Origin: Balanoglossus misakiensis
Lineage: Eukaryota; Animalia; Hemichordata
Assembly: GCA_040954595.2 (NCBI GenBank)
Contig: CM082582.2
Span: 4,510,303 to 4,574,302 of the forward strand
DNA length: 64,000 nucleotides
Direction: 5' to 3'
Positions 24,509 to 62,064 of this stretch are shown piece after piece. Below the pieces are notes generated by a model, which searched no databases, was not told the DNA's origin, and saw only the letters and a list, made by a program, of their open reading frames with translations. The translations under genes and the position numbers were made by a program. How positions within the stretch are numbered: the first letter of the stretch is position 1; every line of letters starts with the position of its first letter.

Positions 24509-24728
24509 TTTCTGCAAATACATAAAGACCCAACTTCAGGAAACCTACCACAGGTATCATTTTCAGATATAGAGTACGTTGGAAAAATTCGTACTTATTG
24601 ACCAATTAACTGCAAAGTTTCACATTATACATTTAGAGTTATCGTGTTGAATTCGTAAGATAAATTATTTTCACATGTATTATACTTTATTTAAATACTG
24701 CTGTTTCTAATCAAATTTCGGAAAGTAC

Positions 24729-36714: not shown

Positions 36715-39700
36715 TTAATTGTGTAGGTATTCAGGAAAAAGAACAATTTTGTTCACCGTTAAGAGACAGAGAAAAGTTATCAGCAAATTTGATCACAAAC
36801 TAAGAAAACAAATTGTGATCTATAAAAGTGTTGTTTTTTTGGTAAAAGGGCTTCATGTGACCCAAAATAGATTTGTTTTAGTTCATTATTGAAGCCTTAT
36901 CTTTCCGCCTATATAAACAAAGTGGTTTACTTTACAGGATACATCGCAATGAGAAATTCAGCATCCCAGACCTTGAGACACCTAAATTCCACTCTATTGG
37001 ATAAAGATTCATCCAATAGAGAGGGACCACTTTTCACGACCTTCGGATGACATCACAGAATTAGTGCATACCTGTGAAACGAGGGCAATAAATGTTAATG
37101 TTCAGCCTGTATTGTTCTGGTAGCTTCACGAGGCTCAAGGTTTGTGGATTGTGGAACATCTCGCCAATCCGTTGAACTGTATATGTTACATGCTCATACT
37201 TTGAAGCGGTTACAAGGAAATTACTACTACGTTGGCTGTATTTTTTATTTCCTTGTATCTAATCTCTCTGTGTGGAAAGTGGAACATGTTTCTATAAAGC
37301 ATTATAGCAAAGCAACTAGTAAACTTTTTCGCATATTTCTTACCCTTTGATTTCAATATTGTAAATTGACCATAAACACGCACACTTGTGTATTCGTGGC
37401 GTAATATGAAGTAGTTTGTCGTACCATCTTGACCGTCCTACAATGTACTTTTGTAACATGTTTTCCGTGTTGAAATCCAGACTAGTTAAGAGAGTTTGTT
37501 TCACAAAGACAGGAGTTGGTAAAACTCTGTATGATTTTATTTGGTCCTGCTCTTTTCCAAGTTGAAATGTCTATTGACACTTTTGTCACACCCAAGAAAA
37601 CCGAAAGGGAGTGTAAGCTATAAATGTACGCGTAATCCCCGGGTGCGTAATCCAAGGAAATTACATCTTTTACATATATGCCGTGTTTTCGTCGGTGCAT
37701 CAACGAGATCGGAATGGAACTAGCGTCATGTCCGGAGACAGAATCAGAACTGAACGACTTCATGGTGCATTGTGGGATGAATCAGCAGTTTCAATGCTAG
37801 TCTAAATATACTTCGCCGTTATGATTATGATGCATTAAATCAATACCAGGAGATATCGTTCTGCTAAAGCGCATGGTACAAAGTATCATTATTATGCTGG
37901 TACATTTACGTGCCTTGTGTATGGGGTCGGAAATACATTCAGTCACTAGGGTTTAATTTAATTACTGAATAACTGTTCCGGATCTTGAATTCTTCGTTCT
38001 TGTTGTATAATTTTTCTGAGTATCACACCTGCAGCGACAGATGGGGTATGGAGGTCAGATGCAGGTGAGAAGCATACCATTGACAAAAATAGACGGTGAT
38101 AAAAAAATAAACGGCCAAATATTTTTAGGCGCCAATGAATTCGGCAACTTGAATTCTATGTCATTGGCTTGACTTTTGTGAGTTTGTTAGAAAGCTTACA
38201 TTTATGTTCGACAATTTTTAGATTTTTATTAGTTGCCCTCTGTCAATATGACTTTTGTCCCTTTGCCATACCATTAACATGGACGCAACTGTGGAGATGT
38301 GTGTGTTGTCTCATAAATTGGGGGCGAGTATATATGCAACTATGTGGACAACCGTCGATGTTGGGTAGGTACGGAGACAGTGAAATGTTTTAAAAATAAG
38401 AATCAATCGAAATTGAGGGCACTTCTGTTGAAGACCGGTCACAACGTGTAACTGTGACCTTGACACTGCTACCAGCGACTTGACTCGCTGTGAAGGCGTT
38501 CTTGGTTCAAACCGCGTCCTTTTGTATTTTTTCCAAAGCCAAATGGTCCCTCGCACCTATCCACCTTGCCAAGGGGCCGATATCTGAGTGTTCTTAGTTT
38601 GACTATCAAAACTTACCCCATACACATACATGTTCGGCTACCTATTACATCATTCATGGATCGCCACCTTCCAAAATACCAGGAGATATCGGCCACCCGC
38701 CAGATCGGATAAAAATAGATGATCCCGACCCTTTTGGTGGCAGTACATTTACATACACACGTATATTTAACGTCGGAACGAGCAACATGTGAATTTTGTT
38801 ACATGTGTAGACGAATTCATACTTTTGCAAAATGACTAATTATTCACGATACATAATTTTTTATATACATGTAATTTCTACAACCGTAATATGACCATGA
38901 CAAAAAAATTGTTGGATGATTTGGTGCACCTTACACATACCAGCATACACGCTAAAATTGCCTCGTAAATAGGTGCTGCCCGATTAATCTACTAGATCAG
39001 TTGTGAGGCTTATCCGTCGATAACTTTGTGCTTCCCACTTCAACCCCCTCCGATATGTCTAAGGGTTACCGGGAAGGCGAGTGTCGCACCAATCAAACAT
39101 CCCGTTCTTGGTCGCTTATATTGCGGTTGCACAAATATTCGATCAAACAGTGAAATAGACTACCCTGAGAGAGCCGTCAAACCATCATCAATAGAAAACA
39201 GAAAACAGTTAACCGTAGGACTAAACATATGCATGTTTCGTATAAACCCAATAACCCAGCTCCATTGTCCCTGTTTAGCGGAAGGCGGATCATGTATAGA
39301 TATGTTCTCGACCAGACTTGCGCATGCGCATGCGGTAAATCTACAGAAGAAGTGGGGATTGAACTCTTACCCAAACACCTTTCCTCGATATCAAGTGTTG
39401 AAAAAACTTTTTTTTGTGCCGAATGCTGTAAAAAATTCTATCACACACCCAAACATCACATAAATGAAAATTAATGTCATTTTCTCACATTAAAATTAGC
39501 ATTGGACTGAATAGGTTTGAAATAGTCAACGCTTTCTGAAATAATAATTCCTTGGGGTAAATCATTCATGATGTGAACACATCTTCTTTGCTTCGGTTAT
39601 TTTCAAATCCACGGATTTTTTGTTGTCTTGACTTAATGCATCAAGCTAATCCGACAATCTGCATGAATGATTACATGTACATGTATATTTTTTAGATTAT

Positions 39701-43220: not shown

Positions 43221-44014
43221 TACAGGCTCTAACATTTCACCGGGGGATATATGACATATGGAATTATAGCATATTCTTTCTTATTGTTTGAGTGAATATA
43301 CGTTACGTTAGTTGTCTGCTATGAACTCTTCAATCGACTACACAATGAGGGCTATTACTGCAAAATATAAGTTATTTTGACCACAAGGGGCAGGCAAACC
43401 CTTTGGTTATGAATGGAGTAAATGCCAACATAGAGATATAGAATAAAGATATAAATCAAGCACAAAATGTAAATTACATTGAATGTATATCAGTGCTACA
43501 CTGCCACAAATATATCATAGTGATTAGATTGGGGGTCACGATTAAGATATCAGGGAATTATGTCTCTTCAAAATAGAATTCGTTTGCTGATGTGATATGA
43601 AACTTATTGTTGTGATTGTCTCCGAATTTGAGTGTGTGGGCGTTTTCGGACAGCGTTAACATGCTTGTTCTGGGACCCACTATGTATACGAGAAGCTATG
43701 TGAATTTTAAATCTTTCAAATTGGCAAAAATGCGGAATTCATCCTGATACCTCTTTTCGTGTCTGTCGGTACACGGGTAACTATTTTGTCTGCTTCATAC
43801 AACGTGACGTGATATTTATCCGATTCGACAATAAAATGACAGGGACTGAAAATGTAGAATAGTAATAAGGTATCTTGTAAAAAGAAAAACAGCGCTCCCA
43901 TGAAAAGAATTTGAAACTGATGTTTCCCCTCATCAGTGGGTATTAAAACTGAACATTGTTTTTATTTGTTAAGTACATATATTTGTATTCTGTGTTGGGA
44001 GAATTTGTAAACCG

Positions 44015-44506
44015 AGAATTGAAGGGGGTGGGTTTGGGAGGGGGTGTCCCCCTCCCACGTAAGAAAATTTTCTAAAATACAGAGCTCAAAGCTGCATTTT
44101 AAGGAACCCGGCAAAAGCAAATTAACTCAACTACCGGTTTGTTGGGGAGGACAAATTTAACCGTCGCCGAGCAAAGTTATCATGGGGTGGGGGCAAGTCC
44201 CCTGACCTGGGTCACTAGATAAACCAGTCAATGATTGAAAGGTGTTGATGAATTGAGGGGGTGGGTGTGGCAGGAGGTTTCCCCCTCCCACATTAGAAAA
44301 TTTTGTAAAATAAAGGGCGCGAAACTGCATTTTTGTGGACTCAAAATAAATATTTAGTCGTCAAAGTTTTCAAGTCCCCCCCCCCTTTCAGTCCCTAAAT
44401 TATTTCAAACCCCCCCCCCTCACATACCCTCAATTTTTTCAAACCCCCCCCCTTAATTCTCCTGCCCCCCCCCCCCCCCTCCAGAGGTGTTTGTGAATGC
44501 AGTCTT
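44015..44506. mobile_element. partial Harbinger-type MITE related to 6092-7042
   Basis: 44280-44347 is the near reverse complement of 6233-6297. G/C homopolymer tracts. Only one TIR-like end is seen (~44487-44506). Confidence 0.55.
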
Positions 44507-44731
44507 AGAAGGGGTTCATTACATCAATTTGTGACAAAGAAGAGAAGATACACAGTTCACATCGTGCGTTTCATGATGTTTATTACTTTCCGTACTCGGA
44601 CCTTGTAGAACCAGCAACCGGATACGACACCACCGTCGGCTCGTGGGAGTTCTACCAATTATAATATATAAGTATAAGAACAACAGATAAACGCCTTATC
44701 GATATTGAGGCTTTTACATCCGCGGAAGACG

Positions 44732-46624
44732 ATGTCTGCGTGCAAACAGCTAACGGGCAACATACACGATCGACGTCCGGAACTATCCAGTCTGTTGCTG
44801 CAAGTATTGAAAGGTGCTGACAGGGATCATTTGAGTGACATGAATAGCGGTAAACATGTAAAGCTCTATCGCAGACTGGTCTCCATACAACCGAACCATC
44901 ACGAGGTGTCTCACGGTGTATATGTCCTACTCAGTTTAGCATTGAGGCGTGACATGCACCATGAACTAGAATTGATAAGTTACATATGCTCGGAATGGTT
45001 ACGGTTGTATAAGGTAAAGGTATCAGCCAACACCCTTCACAACATGTACCATCGTGTTATTGAAACCGTTGCCAAGAGTAATTTGGCGGATGCGACGTTG
45101 TGTACCAGTGTAAGACCCACAGAATCGTGCGACGGTGAAGCTGTGGCATATTTTATACTTCGGTCATTGTACGCACTTGTGGAAGTACCAGCAGGTATGA
45201 TGCTTGACTCGCTCAAAACTGGTAAGGAGCAACTGTGGCATCGCAAGGCGTGTACGATATGTAGTCAATTGTAGGTCTTTGTGTTGCGCCATCGACGGAA
45301 AGAGCAAACATTATGTGATGCGACTATTGGTGATGTCTACACAACCCGTCGATAGCCTGTCCGGCAATATAAAATCAGTAGACGTCCATCACATTTGATC
45401 ATTCAGCCCATGCAATCGGACATGACAACTCTGTCGGAAAACACCAATAAGGTCGTGCCAGTAGTAAATGTTATTCCAATCGAGGCAAGTGCAAGCAAGA
45501 CAGATTGCTGTCAAATGACGAACGAGGGCTTGAACACAAAAGCAGTGTACGATTTGTTTCCAGATTTTTCAGATGAAGACTCATGCATGGAATTCGCTCG
45601 ATTATCCTGCAGTTTGGACGACGACGTATTCACCGAAACACAAATTGGATCAATGTCAGGCGTTTCAGAGAAGCTTAGTGACAAGACACCAGCGGTGATA
45701 AAAGACAACGCGTGTACCAAGACGCAGCAACGTCCATCATCGATTGATCTGCAGTCACCCTTCTCAACTTGGAATATCAGTCCCATGTCTGGTATCGATT
45801 CCGCACCGGGTAGATTTTACTACATGCGTTTGGGATCCATCTCCGATGCCGAAGAAAGTGATACTGGAGTCATCGACAAGGTATCGGACTGCTCCGAGCC
45901 TATGCACAACACACTGCCACATTTTCCATCATCTCCTATCGACATCCCATTAACACCGGATGCCGTTAAGGATGACTCTGAGTCGATAGCCTTATCAAAC
46001 GGCAACACAAGGATGGGGGCTACAAACAAGTCAATGCTTCTTCCGCGTCATAACGAAGAAGGCGATAATCTTACTGCTTATGACATGATGTCAACGAGGC
46101 GTAAAAAGTCCACGAAGAATAAACCACGTGATTTGGACAAACATGAAACTCCCCCCCAAATGGAAGACCAACTGCCAGCCAAATTATCTACGCCGCGTTC
46201 AAGGTCTAAGAAGACTAAGCCACCTGGTCGGAAAAAGCGTGAAACTTCCCCCCACACGGAAGACCAACTGCCAGCCAAATTATCTACGCCGCGTTCAAGG
46301 TCTAAGAAGACTAAGCCACCTGGTCGGAAAAAGTGTGAAACTTCCCCCCACACGGAAGACCAACTGCCAGCCAAATTATCTACGCCGCGTTCAAGGTCTA
46401 AGAAGGCTAAGCCACCTGGTCGGAAAAAGTGTGAAACTTCCCCCCACACGGAAGACCATCTGTCAGCCAAATTATCTACGCCGCGTTCAAGGTCTAAGAA
46501 GACTAAGCCACTTGGGCGGAAAAAGCGTGAAACTTCCCCCTACATGGACGAACAACTGCCAGCCAAAAAATCTAACAAAGCTTCGAAATCGAACAAGACT
46601 AAGTCGCACAGGGTGAACAAATAG
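44732..46624 (+). pseudogene. ~630-codon orphan gene with a basic repeat C-terminus, interrupted by two in-frame TAG codons
   Basis: ORFs 44705-45274 and 45395-46624 are in the same frame, separated only by TAG at 45272 and 45353. They could instead be two genes. Confidence 0.55.
46145..46567 (+). repeat. 96-bp coding tandem repeat, ~4.4 copies
   Basis: ETSPHTEDQLPAKLSTPRSRSKKTKPPGRKKR; units start at 46145, 46241, 46337, 46433 and 46529. Confidence 0.95.
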
Positions 46625-46824
46625 GACCATTGAATCGAACGAATTAAATGCATAAAATAACCATTGTTCCGTATAACATACTATTAATTGTACCGATATG
46701 TCGTTTCACCGACACTGGTTATAGTCTAACGTTTTTAGTTTGAATGTATGAACGTTCTACTATACGCATGGGTTGTAGTGCTGTTCGTGAACCTGTCAAT
46801 TATTGCGAATAAAGTGTTCTGATA

Positions 46825-47886
46825 TTAAATATACATTGACTCGTAATTCTGTTGCATGTTCAGATCTATCTTTGGTGGTCTTGCTTGTACATCTGTAGAG
46901 AATTCATAATTCAAGCAGAACGATCCAACTTGTTTTGTAAAACAAGGTGTCTCTAACCCTCTCTTCCCTATTCCAACATAGCCCATACTCTTACACTGAC
47001 TGAATATATTATCGTCGCTAGAGTAACTGAGAGCTGGATATGCGTAATTAAACGCAGGGTTGCCTCCATTCGACCTCATTCCTACCACATAATGTAATTT
47101 AGATCCCGAATATGTGATTCCGTCTGTTCCGCCACTCGACCATTTAGCATTTGGTACTGGTGTAATGTCTGTCACGCCAGAATACATACACGTAATTAAA
47201 GGAATATGCCATCCGTGAAAGACTTCTTGACCATTGAATGACTTCATGAAACCAATGGGACTGAAACAATTCGTAAACATTTCAGGTGAATCGATAAGAC
47301 TCAACACAAGTTCGATTGAATCCAGACCATAGTTTTCGTTGGCATACCTAATGTAGTCATCGTAATTAAACACCTCATTAGCTACAGTCTTCCAGTTTGA
47401 CCGTTCCCTTTCATCTGATGCCTTTTTAGTAATAATGTTTTGTAACCATTTCAATGGCATCGCCTTCTTAAATTCACCCCTTGGGCCACGAAATTGGTAC
47501 TTTGGGAAACCAACCGCTGACTGACCATAATTAAGAGTCACTTTCTCTGGGCCAGTATACAATAGCAAGAAATCGCCTCTGTTGAAAAAGTCTCCCAAGT
47601 CGTGGTTAAATGGTCTGTTAGTGCACGTGATATCGTGCGTGTATTCCCTGATTGTCTTATAATCAGGATTTACTTGATCTGCAAATAAGGGAGCTACTAA
47701 TGGACCGTCGGTTTGCGTGAATACATTGTGTAAATCCCATGGGTCGTGATAACTGGGCGTGTCGAACGGGGGATATAGCGTCGGATTTGGGACTGGGTTT
47801 ATTCTCGACCGTGTGACAACATCCCTATGGACACCTTGATAAGTAGGTTTCCTGTTAGGATATGGAAATAAATCAGCCAGTTCCAT
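46825..47886 (-). CDS. hypothetical protein, 353 aa
   Basis: Intronless ORF with ATG start, rich in P/Y/F/G/N; no recognised domain. Confidence 0.75.
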   Translation of the reverse strand: MELADLFPYPNRKPTYQGVHRDVVTRSRINPVPNPTLYPPFDTPSYHDPWDLHNVFTQTDGPLVAPLFADQVNPDYKTIREYTHDITCTNRPFNHDLGDFFNRGDFLLLYTGPEKVTLNYGQSAVGFPKYQFRGPRGEFKKAMPLKWLQNIITKKASDERERSNWKTVANEVFNYDDYIRYANENYGLDSIELVLSLIDSPEMFTNCFSPIGFMKSFNGQEVFHGWHIPLITCMYSGVTDITPVPNAKWSSGGTDGITYSGSKLHYVVGMRSNGGNPAFNYAYPALSYSSDDNIFSQCKSMGYVGIGKRGLETPCFTKQVGSFCLNYEFSTDVQARPPKIDLNMQQNYESMYI

Positions 47887-48030
47887 TTCGTGTAATAATT
47901 GTGCAATGCACCAACTTGTTTAATATGTATCTTTATGTTTGTTGCACTCGGATGTAAAAAAAAGTCCACTCATTACACTTCTTACATACTGCATTCTAAC
48001 GCGCACACTGCGTGTGTTTATGGTCACGTC

Positions 48031-48284
48031 GCATTTAATTCATCATTATATTAATTGTAGTTGACAAAAGGACTTGAATAAAAAACAAATACGCTCATGA
48101 CGTATCCTTACATACCAGACTCTAATGCATATGCTATGTTTGAGCGCGTACATGACGCATTTAATTCATCATTATATTAATTGTAGTTGTCAAAAGGAAT
48201 TTAATAAAAAAAACAAATACGCTCATGACATTTCCTTACATACCAGACTCTAACGCATATGCTATGTTTGAGCGCGTACATGAC
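48031..48284. repeat. ~126-bp tandem duplication
   Basis: GCATTTAATTCATCATTATATTAATTGTAG...GCGCGTACATGAC at 48031 and 48157. Confidence 0.92.
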
Positions 48285-48370
48285 ATATTGAAATCCGTCT
48301 AATTCAACGCACATCGTAACGATATCAGTTCGTATCAAGACGAATAATTGTTCTTTAGTTCCTGTCTCTT

Positions 48371-48763
48371 CTATCTAACCATTTTCATATGGATAGGTTC
48401 CACTCCCGATCGCCCTTCATATCGAGCACATATAGCACTGTCTTGTAAGAGTCTGATCGTATACATCTCGGCTGCCATCTGAAGACTGTCAAAAGCTTGT
48501 CGAGTAAATTTGATCTCTTTTGAATGATTTCTGCGAACGATCTCTCTAACTATAGATTTGAAAACCGGTTCGTCGATGACGAATGGATGTCCTGTATAAA
48601 AATAATAACAGTGAATATTGAACGAGTATCACGGCCGCTAAAGTTATTGTGAATTAAGCGTCAGTTCATGCCGGAGTTATTGAGTGTACATACCGATGGT
48701 CGGTGAACGATTCTCTTTGATTGAACATCTTTGCTTGTACGGTGAAAACGCTTTCCCCCGCAT
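48371..48763 (-). CDS. divergent histone H3-like protein, 96 aa; exons 48763-48694 and 48591-48371
   Basis: MRGKAFSPYKQRCSIKENRSPTIG/HPFVIDEPVFKSIVREIVRRNHSKEIKFTRQAFDSLQMAAEMYTIRLLQDSAICARYEGRSGVEPIHMKMVR aligns with the H3 fold ([57 protein letters not shown]). Phase-1 GTATGT..TACAG intron. Confidence 0.8.
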
Positions 48764-48916
48764 GATGATACGTCTTTTGAGAAGTCTGAACCCGAACTGT
48801 CCTTGATAGACGATACTAAGAACTATATACAAGAGTTATGTCACGTGGTAATAGACATCGATATGAATGTACTAATTTAACTGCTTCACATGACAAGCTA
48901 TGCATTGTGTAGACCG

Positions 48917-49113
48917 ACATCATGACTACTTACTCCGACCTGTGATGCCAAACTGTAGTTCCCATGTTTTATCACCGCATACTGCACGTCCTGGCGTCCT
49001 CACATCAGCATATGTGCGACTTTACACTTTGAAATCATGACATCGTGATTACTTACTCCAACATGTGATGCCATACTATATTTCCCATGTTTTATCACCG
49101 CATACTGCACGTC
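48917..49113. repeat. imperfect direct repeat (~74 bp, period ~123 bp) in the divergent promoter region
   Basis: TACTTACTCC..TGTGATGCCA..TTCCCATGTTTTATCACCGCATACTGCACGTC occurs twice. Confidence 0.85.
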
Positions 49114-49242
49114 GTTCTTAGACTATTTCATGATGCCACCGATGCGACTTCACGCGCTTATATATATGTGTGTACACACACACGACCGCATACCCATCTT
49201 GTTCACATCGCCAATAACCGAGAAGTCCACTCAAGTGTTGAC

Positions 49243-50862
49243 ATGGCCGAACTATTCAGTGTTTCAATAAGGAGGCCGGTCAGTATCATTTTGTAATACC
49301 TTTTCCGTATTTTTACATCTTCGGGTGGCATAACCCCCACCTTTTATTTCTTTACTTAGGTGAGTATGTGGCATTTGAGACACGTAAATAAGGACGCGAA
49401 ATGTAAAGCTATGGGAATAGCCAAGAAATTAGAGACAGCGCCCACTAGCGGCCGAAAAACAATGTCGAAAGGTGAGTATCGCGCGTTCGTCAGATATGCG
49501 TTATATTTAATGGTTTTGCGTTTCTGTGCGGTCGTTGATGACCGAGCCAATGATCCGTGTAAAATCAGCACCCATACTTCGAGATATCGGTGGTTTCTTG
49601 AACCATTGTATTTTATTCCGGTTTCAGGCACGAACATCGTTCTACACAATTCAGTACAGTGTTCACAGCCCTTACCCGAAACCTCTCACGTATTGGACGC
49701 CTTGACTAGAGTACATTGTGTGATTGAAGGCTGTTACAACCCAAGTGCCAGAATAGTCAGCACCGATAATGTACACGGTCTAATGCACGCTGTGCAGATG
49801 GCATACAGAAAAAGCTATCCGTTGGTTTTGAGTCCAGATATTGTGTGGTTGTGTATTTCACAAGGATTTATGCAACACATGTGCTCCGACGACCGTTTGT
49901 ACCGCCTACTAATCAAAACTCACGAGAATACAAGCGTTGAATCTACCATGTCCCACCTCGACGACAAGTCAGAATTTGGGGAATGGAAAACTGCGTTAAT
50001 CGACTTGTCAAACCATGTTCGCGAAACCCTAGGAGAGTGTAATTACGGAATGATGACACCAGACTTTACCACAACCACCCTACAAGATAAAATTGTAGGA
50101 GATTTGACAGTGTCTGCCCAAGTGGACCCGAAGTTTTCGTATTTGCTGCAACCAGGTGAAGTAAAAAATCAGCGTCCTTTGACTTCGAATGGAATTCCCT
50201 CTATTTTTTTAGAAGGCTGCCTAGATGATTGGACGGCGATCCGGCGTAATACTGTCAAATTGGGGTGTTATGATCTGAACTGGTGGACCGATGGTGTGGT
50301 AAAAATTCTTGACAAATTTATAAAGGCGAAAGAAGGAGTGATCGACAGAGAATTCTGGTCAGGCATATATGAGGCAAGTATTGTAAAGGAGATTGCATGA
50401 ATTATTGTATTTACCCCTCTTAGTTGTTTCGAGTATCAATTATTTTGAACCATGTATATGTATTCCGCGGTTACAATCATAACACGTTTGTGTTTTGGGG
50501 GTTTTCTGTGGGGTGGGGGGTGGGGGTGGAATACCATCCCTTATACATCGTCTCTTTCGCTCTCTCATTATCAGATGGTTGAGTACCCATGTGGCCCATG
50601 TATCACCGGGTGGATCGTCGACCTGTTTCCGTATTTCATGTACAAACAGGACCGAGAATCAACAATACTGGCGGACTCTTTTCCATCTGGTCTGTCGATA
50701 AACCCTTTCAACGTGGGACAATCCGCAGAAGTCTCGAAACTGGCGCTTGTAAGCGGGTTCATGGGAGTATCTCAAGACGCTGATACACTAGCTCTCAGAC
50801 CGGAATTGGGATGGGTCGTTCTCAACCACAACAAGAACAACGGCTCACCGACCAAGATATAA
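49243..50862 (+). CDS. DUF4419-family protein; predicted exons 49243-49278, 49360-49471, 49628-50373, 50575-50862
   Basis: HGLMHAVQMAY..PLVLSPDIVWLCISQGF, PDFTTTT, GIPSIFLEGCLDDW, FWSGIY, GPCITGWI, FPSGLS and LVSGFMG follow the DUF4419 pattern. Splice sites are phase-compatible; the last donor is probably GCAAGT. Confidence 0.75.
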
Positions 50863-51144
50863 CAGTTGATATTGTAAAATATGTTTGAAATCATTCGTTA
50901 TACAGAGAATAAAATAGAGTCAATGCGCGTGCGTAGGTTTGACAAGAGAACATTGTTACCTGTATGCATGGAGAGCGTCCAAAAGTATGAGGCTCCCATT
51001 TCTTAGACATGGCGAAATATGGCCACCTTGAAAGTGTTTGTTAAAACGTTATACAATTTTAGAAGGAAATATATCACACTTGACACAATAACTTCTGTCC
51101 GCGTATTTATTTATTTATTTAGTAAAATACAAGTTCTTTTATAT

Positions 51145-52533
51145 TTACTGGGTGAACATATGAGGATGAATATTACGCTTTATGGCAGAATCTCTGTTTT
51201 CTCCGTGTTTATTTTTCTCTTCTTTGGGAGTGGACTGACTGGAATCTATGTCGGTCTCTTGTGAAGTTTCGGTGTGTATAAGGTGTCTCGTATTCCCAAT
51301 CATTTCGATGTCCGGAGGTAACCTCCCCCGGTTATTCGCAATAGCATACGCGGTAGAAGTTGATGAAGGTACATACCCACCATGGAACGCGAGCAGTAAT
51401 CCGTGATATACAGTCAATATGGCCGCTCGGATCACCCACGCTGTATACAATATTTTCCCCCATAAAGGTCCGACACTGTTTATAGGACAGTGCCTTGCAT
51501 CTCTTCCAGCTAAATTTGAAGAAAGTATACTTTGTATACACTTGTCTTCAGAGACAATGTCATGTACACTGTAACATTTCGGGAACGCAGGTATCCCATC
51601 GTTTACACATGGCCCGCTAATGAGAAAAATGCCATGTTTGAGTAAATCCAAGACAGCATATGCTACCGAGCTGAGGGCAAAAATATAAGCCACTACAGAC
51701 AGTACCCGGACAACGCAGGTGTCTTCCTGTTTACGATTGGACTCTCGATATAGCAAGACTTTACTCCCTTCTAAGTAATAACTCAATATACAGTTCACTA
51801 AAAATGCCATCGTTGGGGGCCATGTTATTAGCTCATATTTACCATAGGATGGTAGCAATTCGACAAACAAACAAGCTATCATAATTATCATTCCAAACAA
51901 ATACTTTGTAAAGGGAATATTCCCGTATACAAACGACTGATATTGTCTGTCGTATATGTGAAACTGCGTATCTGTAGTACATCGTTCTTGCCCGCGTGTA
52001 TGTATATGTATTAACAGTGGTAAAACTCCGCTTGGAACATATCTCAACAGACACATAATTATGTAATACATGGCTGCTGCTTCTCGTCCCAATCTCACGT
52101 CCGGACACCGTTCGTAGTCCACGTTGAATTTCAGAGGATTTTGTACAGACAGGAAGCGAGTACATTGAGCCAGTGACATATTTAGACATTGCACGTTCGT
52201 TCTCACATCCCGTTCGGCAGTGGAACAGTTAGCCAAGTGTTCCATTATATTAAACATCAGAGACACGTTTGCACAAACGAAAAGTAGAATACATGCCACC
52301 GAGGCCAATTTCGATAGTATCGTATGCACCATCACATCCCGTTTTTCGTGCGATTCACTAGCAAATTTAGAACACAAGTAATATACTATAGCCGGAAAGA
52401 TGACTTCATAGTCTACCAGTGAATATATGTCCGTTTGAAAGAGAATTTCTACTAACCACGTTAAGAGTAGGCACAATACAATGATAGTGGCCCAAAATTG
52501 GTCTTTCATTATTCCAATATCATACAATAACAT
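51145..52533 (-). CDS. multi-pass membrane protein, 462 aa
   Basis: About 8 hydrophobic segments and two Cys-rich loops; intronless. Confidence 0.75.
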   Translation of the reverse strand: MLLYDIGIMKDQFWATIIVLCLLLTWLVEILFQTDIYSLVDYEVIFPAIVYYLCSKFASESHEKRDVMVHTILSKLASVACILLFVCANVSLMFNIMEHLANCSTAERDVRTNVQCLNMSLAQCTRFLSVQNPLKFNVDYERCPDVRLGREAAAMYYIIMCLLRYVPSGVLPLLIHIHTRGQERCTTDTQFHIYDRQYQSFVYGNIPFTKYLFGMIIMIACLFVELLPSYGKYELITWPPTMAFLVNCILSYYLEGSKVLLYRESNRKQEDTCVVRVLSVVAYIFALSSVAYAVLDLLKHGIFLISGPCVNDGIPAFPKCYSVHDIVSEDKCIQSILSSNLAGRDARHCPINSVGPLWGKILYTAWVIRAAILTVYHGLLLAFHGGYVPSSTSTAYAIANNRGRLPPDIEMIGNTRHLIHTETSQETDIDSSQSTPKEEKNKHGENRDSAIKRNIHPHMFTQ

Positions 52534-52593
52534 TTACGGGATCGAATGCACGCAAATACAAAATATATATATATGTTAAGTTTTTTAGGGTCC

Positions 52594-53445
52594 TTATCGC
52601 CTGCAACTAGGAAACACAGGTATCTCAGTCATTAATTTACCGCGTCCGACACATACAAATGATCGGGTGTTTTTGAAAACAGCGTGACATCCTTTGTCGA
52701 ATTCTTCTGGAAACCTTGGGTCCCAACCAGCCTCCTTCAACATTCTGGTGAACGCAGACTCTGTTAATATTTGACTCAATTTGATAACTTTGGGTGATTC
52801 GGTCGGGTCTATTTTGTCTTTGAAACGTGTAAATAACCCCTTTTTACGCGATGACTCAAGTATCAATTTAGGCATTCCAGTCGACTGATACAATCTGATA
52901 TCACTATTCCTGACACACTTGCGGACACAATCGTCCATTTTACACCAATCTATATATTTGTCTTTGAATTCAACACGCTTAAACTGCACGGGGATACTGG
53001 TTGGAGGTACAGGTAGAGATATTTCACGACCGTCACCCCTCATTACCCAACGGAGCTGTTGCCAGTTGCATAACATGGTTACATAATACTGTTGTAAATC
53101 CACATATTGTTTCCCAAGCAGATCTATTGGTACATCACATTCTCTTATATCAACAAACACAGTTTTGTCATTAGTTGCACACCGAACAGGTATGTTTGCA
53201 TATGCGCACACGTATGGGTTCGGCAACTCCAAATCGTCGACAGATTGTTCATAGGAACCAAATCTCAAACAGTCTGTGCTACAGTCTAAAACCACTGTGA
53301 CCCGAGGTGGTAATTGATCGATATGCAATGAGAAAAAAGTGGATTCTTTGGCTGTGTCCATCTTTGTGACACCATGACCTAAAACATTAATACATTTGCT
53401 CACGTTCATCCATGTATTAACACATTCACACGTCGGTTGGTTCAT
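52594..53445 (-). CDS. hypothetical protein, 283 aa
   Basis: Intronless ATG ORF, 60 bp from its neighbour. Confidence 0.7.
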   Translation of the reverse strand: MNQPTCECVNTWMNVSKCINVLGHGVTKMDTAKESTFFSLHIDQLPPRVTVVLDCSTDCLRFGSYEQSVDDLELPNPYVCAYANIPVRCATNDKTVFVDIRECDVPIDLLGKQYVDLQQYYVTMLCNWQQLRWVMRGDGREISLPVPPTSIPVQFKRVEFKDKYIDWCKMDDCVRKCVRNSDIRLYQSTGMPKLILESSRKKGLFTRFKDKIDPTESPKVIKLSQILTESAFTRMLKEAGWDPRFPEEFDKGCHAVFKNTRSFVCVGRGKLMTEIPVFPSCRR

Positions 53446-53538
53446 CTACATTTATTTTACTCGTGCGAAACATTTGAAATCTAATTACTGACAAAACTGA
53501 GTGTAAAAAGGGTGTTACGTGTCTTGGTATAAGTTATA

Positions 53539-54783
53539 ATGAGTTATCTGAGCTACCGTTGCGGCGGTAACCGCGACAAGAAATACCCCAAAAAAACAGT
53601 TTCGTATAACGATCAGAACCTAACGCCGAACTTCCCTGAACAACAGATCCATTCACTGGTGAACCTTCTACAGAACGTTAATTTAGGACAAGGTGCCCTT
53701 ACGCAAGATGTCCCTAATGAACAGGTACAAAGTTTGCGGCCAAAAGTGTTGTACGCAAAAAAAGCTCATGGAGAGAAGAGTTCGGAAGCATTCTCTGGCC
53801 TTTTTGGGCGCAAAATCCCGCCCGTCGTTTTTGCGAACGAATTAGACTCTCCGGGTTGGGACGTATGTCTGGAGATGGTATGGGAACCTAATTTCCGTAT
53901 TCTCGACGAAAGGAACACTCGTAAATGTATTGACTTGAGTGTAGCTTCCAAACAATATGACGCTGTAGTCAGAGAAGTTGGTACAGCACCTTCTAAAACA
54001 GTTTGGCGATTATTTCGACCGGAAATGATTGGCGCTATTCGGCTTTTGTCACCCCACAGACATTTTCAAACACCAAAGTGGGAACCCACTGAAATACCAG
54101 CATGTCCAGAGTTTGCGTCATGGGAGTCTGGCAGTCGTCGTCTACTGTCAGAAGAAGTCAATTTCTTATTAACACCAGAATGCGAATACAATGCATGTAC
54201 CTTAATGGTGAGTGAGGCATTGAGTGAGCACTTCGGTGATTGTTACGACCTTCGCACAGACGTTATTGATGTAGAATCATGCGCTAGACGCCTGGGCCAA
54301 AAACCAGAGAAGTTGGCGGAGCAGATGATTAATACGTTCTTAAAATGTACCTACTTTCGCCAGAGTGGGTGTTGGCTATCTAAGCAATCGACAACTTATC
54401 GCGATATAGCGATTTGGAAATATAGTGGGCTGCGTCCGTCACACCTGTTTTCACACGACGGACAACACATGGAAAGGCATGTTGTGCGGCATCACCCGAC
54501 CAGATGTGAGTTGTTCATACCAGATGGTAAACACAGTATGTGTTGCAGACCATCCCATCTATGCTATGGTTCGTGCAAAGCAAACTCAAGAGACATGGAA
54601 TTGAGAAAGGCAGTATCTAATTTATTATCATTGATCGACGACAGTTCAACGCATAATCACACGTGGTTAAAAGTACAAACACATATAGATAGTTTAGCTG
54701 AATTATTAAATCCACGCGGCTACGTTAATCGAGAAGTTAATCACCCGTTTGACCAGGACACCATCCCAGTATCCACAGAGTAA
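53539..54783 (+). CDS. protein with a C-terminal His-Me finger (HNH-like) endonuclease domain
   Basis: SGCWL...HVVRHHPTRC...MCCRPSHLCYGSCKANSRD matches the VRH..C...CCNPxHLxxGTxxxNxxD pattern. Confidence 0.7.
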   Translation: MSYLSYRCGGNRDKKYPKKTVSYNDQNLTPNFPEQQIHSLVNLLQNVNLGQGALTQDVPNEQVQSLRPKVLYAKKAHGEKSSEAFSGLFGRKIPPVVFANELDSPGWDVCLEMVWEPNFRILDERNTRKCIDLSVASKQYDAVVREVGTAPSKTVWRLFRPEMIGAIRLLSPHRHFQTPKWEPTEIPACPEFASWESGSRRLLSEEVNFLLTPECEYNACTLMVSEALSEHFGDCYDLRTDVIDVESCARRLGQKPEKLAEQMINTFLKCTYFRQSGCWLSKQSTTYRDIAIWKYSGLRPSHLFSHDGQHMERHVVRHHPTRCELFIPDGKHSMCCRPSHLCYGSCKANSRDMELRKAVSNLLSLIDDSSTHNHTWLKVQTHIDSLAELLNPRGYVNREVNHPFDQDTIPVSTE

Positions 54784-54856
54784 GAATGTTTACGGAGGAA
54801 GCAGGTGTAACCGGATATATTTCCGAACGACACCCATCTGACGACAACTTCTTGAA

Positions 54857-55364
54857 AGGCACATAAGCTGCAACTCTTGGGATAATTATCATAATTTTTG
54901 TTTCAAACTGTACTACCATTAGTCTATGCAGATGAAGGCAGAGAAATAAACACAAGCATTATAAACCCTAAATATGAGTGGATATGCAAGTTCTAAGCAG
55001 ATAAATAATAAAGCTTTGCCGCAAGCGATTATGGCCGCAACCGTGGGGAAATAAAAAAAAAAAAGAAAATGTTGCATTTCCGGTTATGAAACTTTATAAA
55101 CAAAACATGAACTCATCCACTTGAGCTCATGGAATTAGTAAATGTACACCACTGAGACATTGTATTTTCCTTTTTCTTTCCAATATTGCTCTTTTTTTAA
55201 ACATTGCAGGAATTTTGGTTTTTCTTCAATTTGTGGCCATTTTGTCATAAATACGTGTTGAGCTTGATATATTATCATGAAATATCATTTAATAGACACG
55301 ATTAGAAGCATATACGAGATTATTTAAAACTTTAATTTTTTGTCCAGTTGCAGCTCATGTGCCT
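54857..55364. mobile_element. second copy (opposite orientation) of the 36205-36714 MITE
   Basis: Ends AGGCACATAAGCTGCAACT / AGTTGCAGCTCATGTGCCT. Interior is the reverse complement of the 36.2 kb copy (e.g. CATCCACTTGAGCTCATGGAA). Flanks TGAA and TCAA. Confidence 0.85.
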
Positions 55365-55746
55365 TCAAGTCTTTCTTTCCGGCTATCTCTTTCGCGTGAT
55401 TACGGATATGAATACTTCTCACTCTAAGGTATTTGTACGCAACAGGTTACTCTAAAATGACTCAAGTGCACAGGCGGTCATCACGGCCTCCTCCAGATGC
55501 AAATATTTCACGTTACTCACTACGTGCACATTTTCAGGTGGAATAATATGCATGGTCGTGTAGTCGTTATTTTGGTTTTTCCTCTGTTTTGAGTTTGAAA
55601 GGTTTGGTTTATACCCTTGTCGATAGTTGCGTCAGTATCACATTTCATAGAGAATTCCTCGTTCTGTCGCATAACTGCAAATCATAAGTAATCCCGGCGT
55701 CATAAAATTATCTTCCACATATGTACGCAACCTGATCATTTCAAAT

Positions 55747-58700
55747 TTAATACATTGGGGCTTTATAACCCCCAAACTCGCCATTGTCTTCCAACCCGTC
55801 GTGTCCTTCAACAATTTTAGACTTTACAGTAGGTGCCAGCTTGAAAATATTAGTTTGGGGGGTTACCGCGTCAACTTCGTTTGAGATTTCAACAAACCTT
55901 GAATCGCGCAGCTTGTTAACAATTAGGTCAATTTCATTGTCATCGACTGAACGAGGGAAATATCGACGAATGTCGAATAAATAAAACGGTTCCTGTTTGG
56001 ATGTCGATGCAAAATCTAACACAGGTTTCTCTAAGGTCTCGCGTATTTTAATCTTGAAGTCGTTGACGGCCTTCTCGTCTTTTAATAAAACCGTGTCATA
56101 GTCTGTAGAACTCACAAGCACCTGCCTTGACTTGTTTTTAATGTCAAACGATTCTCTGGACATCAATGGCTGCTTACATAGATTAAATTGTATGATGTTT
56201 AACTGACGTCGATTGTATACCGGTGTCTTACAAATAGGACAGGACACTTGTTCAACGTTCTCATCAAAGGCGTTCACTCTCATATATTCTTGCAAGCACG
56301 TTTCGTGGAAAAGATGACATCCATTCCAACAGTCTATCACGTTATTTTGTTCAGAATATTTTATTAATTCTTTGTCTGACATTTCTTCTCCGTGATCCCG
56401 TCTCAATCTCAACTCGCGACAGTTTATCGCCTGCAATTGCCGGTATGGCCCCAGCTTATCCAAACATAGGGCGCAATTCGTGGCCTCCCATTCTCCGCGT
56501 TCGTATTCCGGGGATGTGCAATCCGAAGAAGGTTCCGTGAACGACGTGTCGTAATAAGATTCGTCAAAGAGGACAACGCACTTATAAGGGTCACCACATC
56601 TGTAATAACGCTTTCGGAATAGGTTTATCTGGGCACCGGTTCTGTTTTGATTTAACATATTGAATAAATTTACTACACACGACGTCCACAGTGCAAAAAA
56701 ATTTCCAGGTCTAACCAAACACCCGCTGACACATTGACTTTGTGTGCGATGTTGCAGAAAAGATACGCCTTCCTTACTGAGATGGAACGTATCAGAGAAA
56801 AATTTAACCACTTCCGATTTGACAGAAAGTATGGCATCTTGGGTAGGAGTTTTGGAATGTACCATCAGATATTTTATCAAATAGCAAAGTCCATAAAAAC
56901 AATCGTTGGGGTTAATTTGAATTTCACGCGGATCCAGTAATACAAGTCGGCGGTCATTAGCTGGACGCAATTGTCCAGGACCGTGTTTTTCACGAAGGGT
57001 TGTTGAAGCACCATGAAATGGCACTCTGGAAAACACTCGTCCATAGCCCACACCTGTAGTAGTTCCGATTGGAATTAATTGACAACTGCTCTCGGAGTTT
57101 GTAGGTGGCTTTGTCAAAACACTGTCGTTTTGTTGTAACGGGGCCGATTGAGAATTTCCATCTCGGTCGTGATCACTTCTCCTACTGGCTGTGACAATCG
57201 GTGTACAACTACCCCGCAGTTCAACGGGACAAGTTAGGCGTGGCTTTGTCAAAACACTGTCGTTTTGTTGTAACGGGGCCGATTGAGAATTTCCATCTCG
57301 GTCGTGATCACTTCTCCTACTGGCTGTGACAATCGGTGTACAACTACCCCGCAGTTCAACGGGACAAGTTTGACGTGGCTTTGTCAAAACACTGTCGTTT
57401 TGTTGTAACGGGGCCGATTGAGAATTTCCATCTCGGTCGTGATCACTTCTCCTACTGGCTGTGACAATCGGTGTACAACTACCCCGCAGTTCAACGGGAC
57501 AAGTTAGGCGTGGCTTTGTCAAAACACTGTCGTTTTGTTGTAACGGGGCCGATTGAGAATTTCCATCTCGGTCGTGATCACTTCGCCTACTGGTTGTGAC
57601 AATAGGTGTACAACTACCTCGCAGTTTAACTGGACAAGTTTGACGTGGCTTTGTGCACAGCATAGGATCTAACCCCTTTTCTGCACTCTGCACACCAGTA
57701 CCAAACGAAGTTGCTTGTTTATCGTCATCCTCACTGTCATCTGAAGATGAAGACCATTTTGTCAATTCGGGATGTGTTAAGGTGGAGTTGTCGACACGCT
57801 CTATCCTTTTTTTAATAGCACACAGCTCACTTCCGCGCGCCGTGTCCTGACCGACATTCCTTTGTCTTCTGTTACAAAGCCGATTGGCCAATACGCTAGC
57901 GCGGATGGTTGACTCGGTGCGATCTCCCTCGTGTACTTCCAATTGTAACACTTTATCAGAGTGAAGACTAAAATCTCGTCCCGCACACCTTTGGAGAGAG
58001 TTCTGAAAGTCAACATCCGCCAGGTGTATTGCCTTCCATTGCTGACTGGAAAATACAGATTCCTCGCACTTTCGTCTGAAATCAGCAACAGAATTGTTTT
58101 CGTCTGTTCTTTGTTTCAACACGGACAACCACATTTCATGCAACATGTTGTATTTAGTGTCGTCGATAACTCCCAGTTTACCCGCATGTAGATGCCTACT
58201 GAGCGTGGTTAACGTACGATCCATTGCTTTACAAAGGTCCCCATCACTTGTGTCTCGAATGCATTTTTGCAAGCGTGTAATTTCAGCCCCTAAATTGTTA
58301 AGTTTGGTTGAATTCTGTGTATGTATCTTGACGAATTCTTTACACCTTTCACCTAGGTTCGGCATTCTCATGCATAAATCTCTATTTAACATTCTCGGGT
58401 TTCGATCAAGCCATTTATTTTCGTCAGAGAAATGGTAGAAATCGGCGGTAGAACACGCATCAATACTCTTAACTTCTTCAATCTGTTCCTCTGTATATCC
58501 GTGATCTCGCAATATATGCCTATTTAAGGACCGTTCATTATGAAAGCGGTCGTGGCAATTACGTATTCTACAAGTAAATCGAAACCCTAGTAAGACTTCC
58601 TGGGTTTTCGCGTATGGTCCTAATTCTTCCATAAGAACTCGTATTTTCCGGCGTCTGTCCGGTTGGTCTTCTGCAAGCAAGTCGAAGTGGCTGACTGATT

Positions 58701-59694
58701 CCGACAAACCAAACACTCTGACGTTGGTGAGTGACCAATCAAACGTGGACAGGTACTCTGTTAAACCACGAGTGTGAATAAATCCATATTTCTGTCGCAA
58801 ATGTTCTAAAAGGACATGGAAATAGCACACTCCTCGTGGTTGATTGTCATTATCAGCCAAGAAATAAATGCAATCGGAAACAATAGTTTTGGGGACATTC
58901 GCCACTAATTTATCGCCATGCATTCGGACAAGTGTGACGTTGTTATTACAAGTATCGCAGTTGACAACGCTTCTAAGACGGCCTAGGAAAAATACGCATG
59001 TTTGAAATCCCAGGTTTCGTTCCTTTAGGTTAGTCATTGAGACATAGTCGCCACTGGTCAATGCCCTTTGCAAGAATCGCCATTGGTCGCGCATAAACGC
59101 GGGTTCTCCAATCAAGATAGAATGGGGTCGGTTAAGCATGGCCCTTGACAAGATCATACTGTGATCTCTGTCGCTAAACGTGTAAAACTTATCAAGGCCA
59201 CTGGTGTCTCTCATGTCATTAACCCATTCGGGGTACATTGTGTGTGTCTCTCTCTGTTCGTCGTTTGTCTTCATGCGCTTGTTAGCACTCTTGGTGTCTC
59301 CGTCACTCGCGTTCACGAGTGGACTGAGAGTCGTCGACAATGCTCGAACGAAATCAGCTTGACTCGCGTATATGCCATACAGACTGAAATTTTTTGGTCT
59401 CATTACCATCTCGTTGATTAGTTGATATAAATCAATCCGGAACCCGGGTGTCGGTTGACCAGTAGAAAATTCACGGGCCATGTTAGCAATTTGATTAATA
59501 GTCAAACAATCATGTTGGCTGACAACTTTGTATATCTTTTCAAGAAACGTGTGCAATGACTTTTCTTGCACAGTGGTCGAGTCAGTGTTCAGTTTATCGA
59601 TGGTAGATGAAGGTTTCCGCCCAGAGCCTGAGTCGACGCCAAACACCAATAAAACATCTTTACTGAGTTCTGGATAGAGCGGGGACAGATTCAT
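55747..59694 (-). CDS. 1315-aa protein with a C2H2 finger, tandem repeats and a C-terminal RING-H2-like domain
   Basis: FTCRIRNCHDRFHNERSLNRHILRDH (C2H2). CALC...GCHLFHETC...CPIC (RING-H2 with a long insert). Intronless. Confidence 0.8.
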   Translation of the reverse strand: MNLSPLYPELSKDVLLVFGVDSGSGRKPSSTIDKLNTDSTTVQEKSLHTFLEKIYKVVSQHDCLTINQIANMAREFSTGQPTPGFRIDLYQLINEMVMRPKNFSLYGIYASQADFVRALSTTLSPLVNASDGDTKSANKRMKTNDEQRETHTMYPEWVNDMRDTSGLDKFYTFSDRDHSMILSRAMLNRPHSILIGEPAFMRDQWRFLQRALTSGDYVSMTNLKERNLGFQTCVFFLGRLRSVVNCDTCNNNVTLVRMHGDKLVANVPKTIVSDCIYFLADNDNQPRGVCYFHVLLEHLRQKYGFIHTRGLTEYLSTFDWSLTNVRVFGLSESVSHFDLLAEDQPDRRRKIRVLMEELGPYAKTQEVLLGFRFTCRIRNCHDRFHNERSLNRHILRDHGYTEEQIEEVKSIDACSTADFYHFSDENKWLDRNPRMLNRDLCMRMPNLGERCKEFVKIHTQNSTKLNNLGAEITRLQKCIRDTSDGDLCKAMDRTLTTLSRHLHAGKLGVIDDTKYNMLHEMWLSVLKQRTDENNSVADFRRKCEESVFSSQQWKAIHLADVDFQNSLQRCAGRDFSLHSDKVLQLEVHEGDRTESTIRASVLANRLCNRRQRNVGQDTARGSELCAIKKRIERVDNSTLTHPELTKWSSSSDDSEDDDKQATSFGTGVQSAEKGLDPMLCTKPRQTCPVKLRGSCTPIVTTSRRSDHDRDGNSQSAPLQQNDSVLTKPRLTCPVELRGSCTPIVTASRRSDHDRDGNSQSAPLQQNDSVLTKPRQTCPVELRGSCTPIVTASRRSDHDRDGNSQSAPLQQNDSVLTKPRLTCPVELRGSCTPIVTASRRSDHDRDGNSQSAPLQQNDSVLTKPPTNSESSCQLIPIGTTTGVGYGRVFSRVPFHGASTTLREKHGPGQLRPANDRRLVLLDPREIQINPNDCFYGLCYLIKYLMVHSKTPTQDAILSVKSEVVKFFSDTFHLSKEGVSFLQHRTQSQCVSGCLVRPGNFFALWTSCVVNLFNMLNQNRTGAQINLFRKRYYRCGDPYKCVVLFDESYYDTSFTEPSSDCTSPEYERGEWEATNCALCLDKLGPYRQLQAINCRELRLRRDHGEEMSDKELIKYSEQNNVIDCWNGCHLFHETCLQEYMRVNAFDENVEQVSCPICKTPVYNRRQLNIIQFNLCKQPLMSRESFDIKNKSRQVLVSSTDYDTVLLKDEKAVNDFKIKIRETLEKPVLDFASTSKQEPFYLFDIRRYFPRSVDDNEIDLIVNKLRDSRFVEISNEVDAVTPQTNIFKLAPTVKSKIVEGHDGLEDNGEFGGYKAPMY
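57106..57654 (-). repeat. 135-bp coding tandem repeat, 4 copies
   Basis: TKPRxTCPVELRGSCTPIVTASRRSDHDRDGNSQSAPLQQNDSVL; period 135 (57106, 57241, 57376, 57511, 57646). Confidence 0.95.
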
Positions 59695-60001
59695 TTCATT
59701 ACTTTTCTCGGTTATTCGCCGAAACTGTTTTGGAACGTACGCTAATATCCACTTACAAAAGAGGGCACGGTAGTGTGTAGAGGTAATGTGCTGTAATTGA
59801 ATCTTTGTAAGAACACCTGTCGAGAAAAGTGCCTCATTAAACAGGACTCATCTTCCTTGTTTAATATATATCTTTATGTTTTCATTATCGTATGCATATA
59901 CAAAATACATTTCAATACCCCACGATTGATAAGAGAGACTGTATCCTATTTATTCACGTGTATGTTTTTGAGGAAGAAACGACCATGTCGTATTCAGTGA
60001 A

Positions 60002-60793
60002 TTAGTTTCTTGTACGTGACACCCCTTGAATGCTGTCAGTATCTGCATGGTCTATTAGTAAGTCCGACTCGTAATCGTCTGTAGGATAAGGGTCGTTGTT
60101 TCTAAAATTGATCTCTCTAGTCAGCCTCTTGTGGTGATACAAATGTGTCGCTAAATGTACGAACGAAAACACGGCAATTATAATGAGACCACCCTTTACA
60201 ACGTCTTCACCGAACACTTTACAGAACCCAGTGTCTCTGTAATTGGGCGTCAGAAAACACATGGGTATGCTTTGGGCCGTTACCACAAGAATGCCGATGA
60301 CAAAAAGTGGAAACACATGTATAGCTATTCTCTCTCGCATATGGGGTTCCATGAGAGACTCCAGTATCTTCTCTTCCCCTTTGAAAGTCTTGTAAAGGAG
60401 ATACACTACGTTCAGCATCACGATAGCGCAGTCTATATACGCGGGATACACGCAAAATCTCAATATACCGTATAAATCTGGGATCTTACACGGGTCTCCA
60501 CCCGCTCTTTCACCTTGTACGACTAACATAATGGCTGCGATTGTGAAAAAAACAGCGTACACAAACTTTTGAAGATGAAGTAACAGATGGTCGTGAAATG
60601 CCCTCAGTCCCTTCTGTCTATAAACGTCTGTGACGCCATCATCCAGTCTCTTGAATTCTTGAACAGTTTTTAGGAAAACCTTTCTAGACGAATGCGTTAA
60701 AGTATCCCACCTGTCGCCCATCTGATTCTTAAACGGCCGTTTAGTCACATGTTGTTTACCGACAATCCGGGTATATTTTTTGCCGGGTGTCAT
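60002..60793 (-). CDS. membrane protein with ~4 TM segments, 263 aa
   Basis: Four hydrophobic stretches with Cys-containing loops. Confidence 0.75.
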   Translation of the reverse strand: MTPGKKYTRIVGKQHVTKRPFKNQMGDRWDTLTHSSRKVFLKTVQEFKRLDDGVTDVYRQKGLRAFHDHLLLHLQKFVYAVFFTIAAIMLVVQGERAGGDPCKIPDLYGILRFCVYPAYIDCAIVMLNVVYLLYKTFKGEEKILESLMEPHMRERIAIHVFPLFVIGILVVTAQSIPMCFLTPNYRDTGFCKVFGEDVVKGGLIIIAVFSFVHLATHLYHHKRLTREINFRNNDPYPTDDYESDLLIDHADTDSIQGVSRTRN

Positions 60794-60859
60794 TCTGATT
60801 TACTTAGTTACTTGTCTAATAACGTCGACGTTAATAGAACTAACCAGTGAATAAGTGTG

Positions 60860-61678: not shown

Positions 61679-61717
61679 GATGTGTCACCTCGCGTCGACT
61701 GATAAACATCACGTCAC

Positions 61718-62013: not shown

Positions 62014-62064
62014 ACTTTGTTCTTTTATATTGGACTCGCACGTCGAGTGCCGTCAATCAGCACC

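Follow-up and report, generated by a model that had tools for sequence, protein, structure and literature searches.

A predicted two-exon, tail-less histone H3-like gene within a probable endogenous large DNA virus of Balanoglossus misakiensis

Results

Gene model

The window analysed here, a stretch of 64,000 nucleotides from the hemichordate Balanoglossus misakiensis (assembly GCA_040954595.2, contig CM082582.2, positions 4,510,303 to 4,574,302), carries in its right-hand part a gene-dense block of mostly orphan open reading frames (44503-64000) that runs past the window's right end. On the minus strand of this block lies an H3-like gene for which two exons are predicted: exon 1 at 48763-48694 (70 nt; 23 codons and one base, opening on an ATG with A at -3), an intron at 48693-48592 (102 nt, phase 1) and exon 2 at 48591-48371 (221 nt), which holds an H3-type fold of alpha1-L1-alpha2-L2 and a short alpha3, followed by a TAG at 48373-48371 after H3 position 128. 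The intron has GT-AG boundaries (GTATGT...TACAG) with a pyrimidine/T-rich acceptor, and its removal leaves 96 codons, encoding 96 aa without an internal stop, of which exon 1 supplies a short, basic N-terminus (six Lys or Arg, one acidic residue). If the intron is retained there are in-frame stops, and the first Met of the exon-2 frame comes only at its residue 51. The splice was called from sequence signals alone; exon 1 (ATG 48763) is the top scorer among the six phase-1 ATG..GT candidates within 1.3 kb (4 of 6, the others 3) and has the best donor of the six, while the strong GTAAGT donors within the upstream repeats are not among these first-exon candidates. The two-exon gene proposed by the sequence-only reading of this DNA therefore holds as a prediction.

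The gene is accompanied by a TATA-like box (48824-48829, minus strand), 66 nt 5' of the ATG, and by an ATTAAA polyadenylation-like signal (48200-48205, minus strand), 165 nt past the stop, with a second at 48165; these are consensus matches only. On its upstream side are two 75-nt direct repeats of family D16 (48916-49113; 123-nt spacing, 91% alike) and on its downstream side two 88-nt direct repeats of family D13 (48080-48295; 128-nt spacing, 92% alike). Short direct repeats with 68-128 nt spacing occur in the block's intergenic gaps at 47981-48295, 48916-49113 and 61754-62013. A motif pattern built from the gene has one match in the window and none in 100 shuffles, the match itself being circular.

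The surrounding block

The block is 80% coding and has a CpG observed/expected ratio of 1.06-1.11, against 0.72-0.81 in the host part of the window; left of about 43.2 kb this host part has Pfam matches to Macro, RING, Deltex-C, P450, sialyltransferase and NACHT-like families. Of 13 block frames scanned, nine have no Pfam family at the cut-off, and the matches that were found in the block are the histone, two DUF4419 pieces, and weak RING and PD-(D/E)XK matches. No capsid, polymerase, terminase or packaging ATPase was recognised in the visible 19.5 kb, and searches of the Atlas, loci scans, PHROGs, NCBIfam, PDB and phage records gave no placement in a virus family. We consider the block to be probably an endogenous large DNA virus.

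The upstream neighbour of the H3-like gene is a divergently oriented DUF4419 gene (49366-50862, plus strand) whose two Pfam pieces cover profile positions 1-195 and 249-303; a GC-AG intron is predicted between them (50374-50574, plus strand; 201 nt, phase 0), and its splicing would join the pieces in frame. In the wasp virus LbFV, ORF1 is a DUF4419 gene whose top hit is an entomopoxvirus (PMC5381508). The downstream neighbour is a 353-aa orphan (46825-47886, minus strand) for which ENA assemblies contain two unnamed relatives (57% and 28%); it has no family and no Atlas match, and its predicted fold is unusable (pLDDT 30.9). We found no other histone in 23 long and 129 short frames, a count that covers alternative frames inside the long ORFs in part; the H4, H2A or H2B partners downstream, whose presence the sequence-only reading had raised, were thus not found in the visible block. 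The remainder of the element past the window may encode an H4 of its own.

Several other features were observed along the window. The 422-codon orphan at 45356-46624 (plus strand), two genes from the histone, ends in a basic 96-nt tandem repeat of about 4-5 units rich in Lys, Arg, Ser and Pro, which is possibly a DNA-condensing or H1-like region. The 1366-codon orphan at 55747-59847 (minus strand) carries a C2H2-like finger and, at its C-terminus, a RING-like motif, together with a 135-nt tandem repeat (56970-57779); its Pfam matches lie below the cut-off. The 275-codon ORF at 60851-61678 (plus strand) has a weak PD-(D/E)XK nuclease match (YhcG_C, E 0.035) and no phage match. Compared with host DNA, the block is about 2-3 times richer in ACGT-core words. 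On the host side, the frame at 23165-24535 (minus strand) matches 'Family 4 glycosyltransferase in conflict systems' (E 4.8e-33), in a neighbourhood rich in immune genes (NACHT-like, Macro, Deltex-like).

Sequencing reads from one sample bear on the number of block copies. In run X1 the eight listed block contigs have depths of 134.5-152.9, with 0-3 differences each, and the eight listed host contigs 15.6-36.2; in run X2 the block is about threefold the host. Contig depth is no true copy number, and X1 and X2 come from the same sample; the depths hint at several near-identical block copies or extra-chromosomal DNA. One X2 contig omits 288 nt of the tandem repeat region of the 45356-46624 ORF. 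A MITE-like high-copy host repeat with terminal inverted ends lies within the block (54855-55369; 88% like a copy at 36200-36716), and another high-copy host repeat (43994-44502) forms the left junction. Contigs extend 29-30 bases into both repeats at full block depth, which suggests that the repeats are common to most copies and hence that the block was probably amplified after gaining them. Among the contigs listed, none bridges the left junction (about 44.5 kb, in the repeat) by 31 bases on each side.

Histone fold

Exon 2 is, by its sequence matches, an H3-type histone fold. It matches the Pfam Histone family PF00125 with 39.5 bits (E 8.1e-10, cut-off 26.4) and gives 145 PDB matches at E up to 0.01 (best E 2.8e-5), of which the best 60 are all H3 or H3-labelled histone chains. 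Its Atlas matches are histone clusters only (top score 0.91). The single-chain AlphaFold model is weak (pLDDT 49.9) and covers alpha1 and most of alpha2 only; used with Foldseek, it places H3 and H4 chains in the top rows at about 30% identity with E > 0.05, and a viral-library search with it gave no match.

For comparison, H3-like sequences were gathered with patterns from the query's own motifs (1 + 37 viral-contig loci and at least 119 metagenome loci), giving a set of 110 distinct cores that is biased towards the query and contains no animal CENP-A. Some fragments with introns and a match that is no histone (L103) remain in the unfiltered counts; 80 distinct rows, from at least 157 pattern loci, passed the filters and made, with the query, the 81 rows of the tree. 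Identity to these 80 rows is 22-35% (median 29%), and in the unresolved 81-row tree, built without animal CENP-A, the query's end branch measures 6.19 changes per column, the median being 0.18. The sole viral-contig match to exon 2, L001, was rejected because it is an agreement of 8 residues, due to chance, with an unrelated phage ORF. With exon 2 as query, word-index searches gave no homologue at near or longer lengths, and a tighter DNA pattern of the gene matched no viral contigs. Two of the sequences gathered deserve mention in their own right: a near-canonical H4-H3 fusion with an acidic linker on a metagenome contig (L051:910-1698, plus strand), and, on a giant-virus MAG contig (L002:2887-3198, minus strand), an H3-like protein of 104 aa whose tail is short and which shows CenH3-like traits (+1 loop, no Q68, W84); the latter may be of viral origin or come from eukaryotic contamination.

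The core residues F67, V71, I74, F84, A88, L92, A95, Y99, L103, D106, C110, R116 and P121 (H3 numbering) are kept and the fold contains a single indel, a pattern that at about 30% identity would point to divergence under selection on the fold rather than to decay. The predicted product has no H3 tail, in agreement with the sequence-only reading, which had remarked on the missing ARTKQTARKS; that reading was also right that loop 1 is one residue longer than in H3, as seen in both the PDB matches and the alignment, and that FKSI replaces FQRL, which puts Lys at H3 position 68. Its description of a complete H3-type fold went too far at both ends. Against a profile of 68 H3-like comparison sequences the score is 50.2 bits for the spliced product and 50.9 for exon 2 by itself; because exon 1 adds nothing to this score, neither H3 tail nor alphaN homology is detectable in it by profile and shuffles. 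Shuffled N-termini scored as well as the real exon 1 in 370 of 500 cases (also in 464 of 2000 shuffles), and an alignment of exon 1 with alphaN was rejected on such shuffles. At the other end, alpha3 stops at H3 position 128, earlier than in all 105 listed comparison sequences that reach position 123.

The stop codon

The sequence-only reading had suspected that the TAG may be premature and had suggested looking in other copies for a sense codon at 48371-48373. Reading past the TAG with X at the stop raises the profile score to 52.1, a gain of 1.9 bits that 69 of 500 shuffles of the following residues equal, and of the six residues that follow the stop, two agree with H3 (window frame against L014). 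The X1 contig over 48160-48988 has depth 152.9 and no differences, so TAG is present in the dominant sequence of the reads and, among the variant rows listed (32 more exist), the suspicion finds no support; the copies being near-identical, a TAG inherited from one founder is compatible with these data.

Tetramer face, DNA contacts and chaperone site

The face through which two H3 molecules meet is extensively changed. Relative to H3 the protein has H113Y, A114E, K122I, D123H and L126M and lacks residue 130, so that of C110, H113, A114, D123, L126 and I130 in the H3-H3' four-helix face only C110 is kept. H113 and D123 are each retained in 96 of the 105 listed comparison H3-likes. According to PMC6795475, H113 bonds C110 and D123 and contacts A114, R116, K122 and L126, and in yeast H113A, A114Y and L126A prevent the H3-H3' interface; L126 and position 130 are also described as sensitive points (10.1101/170811).

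Within alpha1 we find R63D, K/R64E and R69S, an acidic residue 64 occurring in none of the 110 listed comparison cores. Positions 63, 64 and 69 of H3 are ones that we take to be DNA-contact sites. The protein is nonetheless basic overall (pI about 10), and R72, K83 and R116 remain basic. Its 87-90 chaperone site matches neither H3.1/H3.2 nor H3.3 as these are given in PMC9145170, and loading onto DNA by host chaperones is doubtful because the site fits neither animal H3 type.

Predicted pairing with H4

As the sequence-only reading had proposed, the protein was modelled with H4, using in place of the host's H4 a near-canonical one from viral-contig locus L031. Predicted as a complex without alignments in three runs, the pair reached 0.81-0.83 and three controls 0.00 (0.82 against 0.00 in summary); the partner pLDDT was 86 and contacts agreed to at least 93%. 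The mark used to call a pairing was reached by 51 of 78 solved pairs and by 2 of 108 mismatched pairs. The protein is thus predicted to form a handshake dimer with H4. H3-H4 being a solved, textbook pair, the pass may be memory on the part of the predictor; as a modelling result it shows likeness rather than binding.

Resemblance to CenH3

In PMC4359364, CenH3 is recognised by an extended loop 1 together with the lack of Q68, F84 and T118 (numbered 69, 85 and 118 there), a question also treated in PMC7598501. Three of these four traits are present here (the +1 loop 1, K68 and G118), but F84 is kept. The +1 loop is not diagnostic, because among the 81 listed H3-likes that have it 27 carry an ordinary ARTK tail; 37 of the 81 lack Q68. 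Divergent non-centromeric H3s, the clandestinovirus H3 of PMC9145170 among them, commonly show CenH3-like features of the kind found here. The best 60 of the 145 PDB matches to exon 2 include no CENP-A, whereas the first-ranked match of a CenH3-like control query is fission-yeast Cnp1. Profiles of 13 motif-defined CenH3-likes, 31 H3-likes with the +1 loop and 28 with the canonical loop score 48.4, 45.8 and 39.2 bits, a difference of only 2.6 bits between the first two, and mean identity is 27% to the CenH3-like set and 29% to the H3-like sets. We read the CenH3-like traits as general divergence. The features to which the sequence-only reading drew attention are real in so far as loop 1 is longer and Q68 and T118 are gone; their centromeric meaning does not follow, as F84 is kept and the features are common in non-centromeric H3s.

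Discussion

Relation to known viral histones

The closest published parallels, described in PMC9145170, are the six viral singlet H3s (Manila clam xenomavirus, DSLPV1, Sylvanvirus, NCLDV MAGs). These share with our gene the situation of a lone H3-like gene in a virus (here a probable one) with host H4 as the expected partner, and xenomavirus is likewise an animal virus. Yet their fold shares 73-87% identity with that of host H3 and their tail is retained or extended, whereas the protein described here, at 22-35% (median 29%), is tail-less, predicted to be spliced, and changed at its tetramer face and chaperone site. The insect iridovirus H4-H3 doublet (PMC9145170) is in other respects nearer, as a very divergent (about 23%) histone of an invertebrate DNA virus with no modifiable tails, a divergent chaperone site and the loss of DNA-binding arginines; unlike our single H3-like fold with its predicted intron and no partner in view, it is fused. 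The H3-likes of clandestinovirus and medusavirus (PMC9145170) also have a loop 1 that is longer and an N-terminal tail that is shorter, and belong to nuclear viruses with introns in some genes, but they are 43-44% identical to H3, conserve the chaperone site and tail lysines, and occur in a full viral histone set in amoebal hosts.

Mirusviruses offer a further comparison, H3-like genes being, according to PMC10132985 and PMC12768974, a core function of these large, nucleus-replicating, intron-bearing DNA viruses; their known hosts are unicellular, however, and no mirusvirus hallmark gene or sequence link was found in the visible block. Bracovirus CvBV-H4 is, like our gene, a single histone of an animal-integrated virus and is reported to enter host chromatin, but it is a recently host-derived H4 with a near-canonical fold that acts via a long tail, an opposite design (PMC9145170). 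The viral histones reviewed there are either near-canonical singlets (73-89% identity) or very divergent, mostly fused giant-virus sets. Neither class accommodates a tail-less singlet of about 30% identity whose gene has a predicted intron, whose tetramer face is rebuilt and which lies in an animal-integrated multi-copy element. Among the papers listed by our literature searches, none, judged by its listing, describes such a gene, a result on which supplements (e.g. Table S1 of PMC9145170) may bear.

Possible function and alternatives

Our tentative reading, to which we would give slightly less than an even chance, is that the gene encodes a viral H3-derived protein, spliced by the host, that dimerises with host H4 and serves as a tail-less decoy or substitute which blunts silencing. 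The host spliceosome would remove the predicted intron, implying nuclear transcription, and the product would join host H4 in the predicted handshake dimer. Such dimers would be unable to form a normal tetramer with host H3 and would carry no K4, K9, K27 or K36 sites, so that H4 would be tied up or loose, unmarkable particles would form on viral DNA; either the particles or the depletion of H4 could then weaken chromatin silencing of the viral genome. The sequence-only reading had offered a viral histone for genome packaging. Its viral-histone half is the best reading of the fold, the predicted H4 pairing and a block that looks foreign, gene-dense and multi-copy, but changes in the tetramer face and at two DNA-contact positions make ordinary packaging doubtful.

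The same changes could be understood differently, since Y113 and H123 together could make a new self-specific interface, in which case the protein would be a structural histone and not a decoy, forming its own tetramers with host H4 or an unseen viral H4 and packaging or organising the viral genome. That both partners of the H113-D123 bond are changed can be read as co-evolution, and the pI of about 10 with basic R72, K83 and R116 would suit such a role; in PMC9145170, moreover, most divergent viral histones of 22-48% identity belong to sets of several histones, and virions contain the tail-less iridovirus H4-H3 doublet. We nevertheless regard a structural histone as somewhat unlikely, given an alpha3 without position 130, Glu at 114, acidic or neutral residues at 63, 64 and 69, an undetectable alphaN and the lack of another histone in the 23 long and 129 short frames. 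A more specific proposal, which we rate as unlikely, is that DNA viruses of an undescribed animal-integrating lineage make an orthogonal H3 that has no tail, is spliced, pairs with host H4 and tetramerises with itself alone via Tyr113/His123, which would give the virus its own chromatin beyond H3K9/K27 silencing. The early end (before all 105 comparison sequences), the two H3-like residues of six after the stop and the loss of D123 and H113 would also suit a relic in decay, namely a viral histone gene that once worked, now has a premature stop and is passively carried in amplified copies, which, being near-identical, are not independent witnesses. But the match after the stop lacks significance (69 of 500 shuffles), the predicted splice sites are intact, as are the TATA and polyA signals, the ORFs next to the gene are open and long, CpG is undepleted and the product models confidently with H4, and we think decay quite unlikely.

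A viral CenH3 mimic, entering centromeric chromatin or marking the viral genome as centromere-like, was the other suggestion of the sequence-only reading. The +1 loop 1, the absence of Q68 and T118 and the higher score of the CenH3-like profile (48.4 bits against 45.8 and 39.2) speak for it, as does Gln at position 87, which we presume to be like human CENP-A. Yet F84 is kept, 27 of 81 +1-loop sequences have ARTK tails and 37 lack Q68, identity to the CenH3-like set (27%) does not exceed that to the H3-like sets (29%), and PDB ranks H3 first with no CENP-A in the best 60 of 145 matches, while the CenH3-like control finds Cnp1. CENP-C reads the C-terminus of CENP-A, and that C-terminus is absent here. 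Compared with CenH3/CENP-A generally, the protein shares the longer loop 1, the missing Q68 and T118 and an unrelated N-terminus, and differs in keeping F84, ending at position 128, losing H113 and D123, lying in a multi-copy foreign block and ranking with H3 in the PDB search. A centromere mimic is accordingly poorly supported and, in our judgement, improbable.

That the element is not viral at all but a large mobile or duplicated one, with the gene a captured host-derived H3 variant, is suggested by the lack of any recognised hallmark viral gene in the visible 19.5 kb, by predicted introns and eukaryotic promoter signals, and by host repeats inside and at the edge that are apparently common to most copies; it sits badly with 80% coding density, orphan ORFs without an animal family, undepleted CpG and an identity of about 30%, which is far from any recent host H3, and is highly improbable. 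Scarcely credible is the host's own CENP-A gene: a divergent, intron-containing H3-like gene with some CenH3 traits might be expected of it, but not one in a multi-copy, compositionally foreign block, on a terminal branch of 6.19 changes per column (median 0.18), with H113, D123 and the end of alpha3 missing.

If the H3-derived decoy or substitute that we tentatively favour does bind H4, and not host H3, it would be a natural dominant-negative or orthogonal histone, and would offer a direct test of how a nuclear DNA virus avoids chromatin silencing. The gene also marks what is probably an unclassified large virus in an animal genome.
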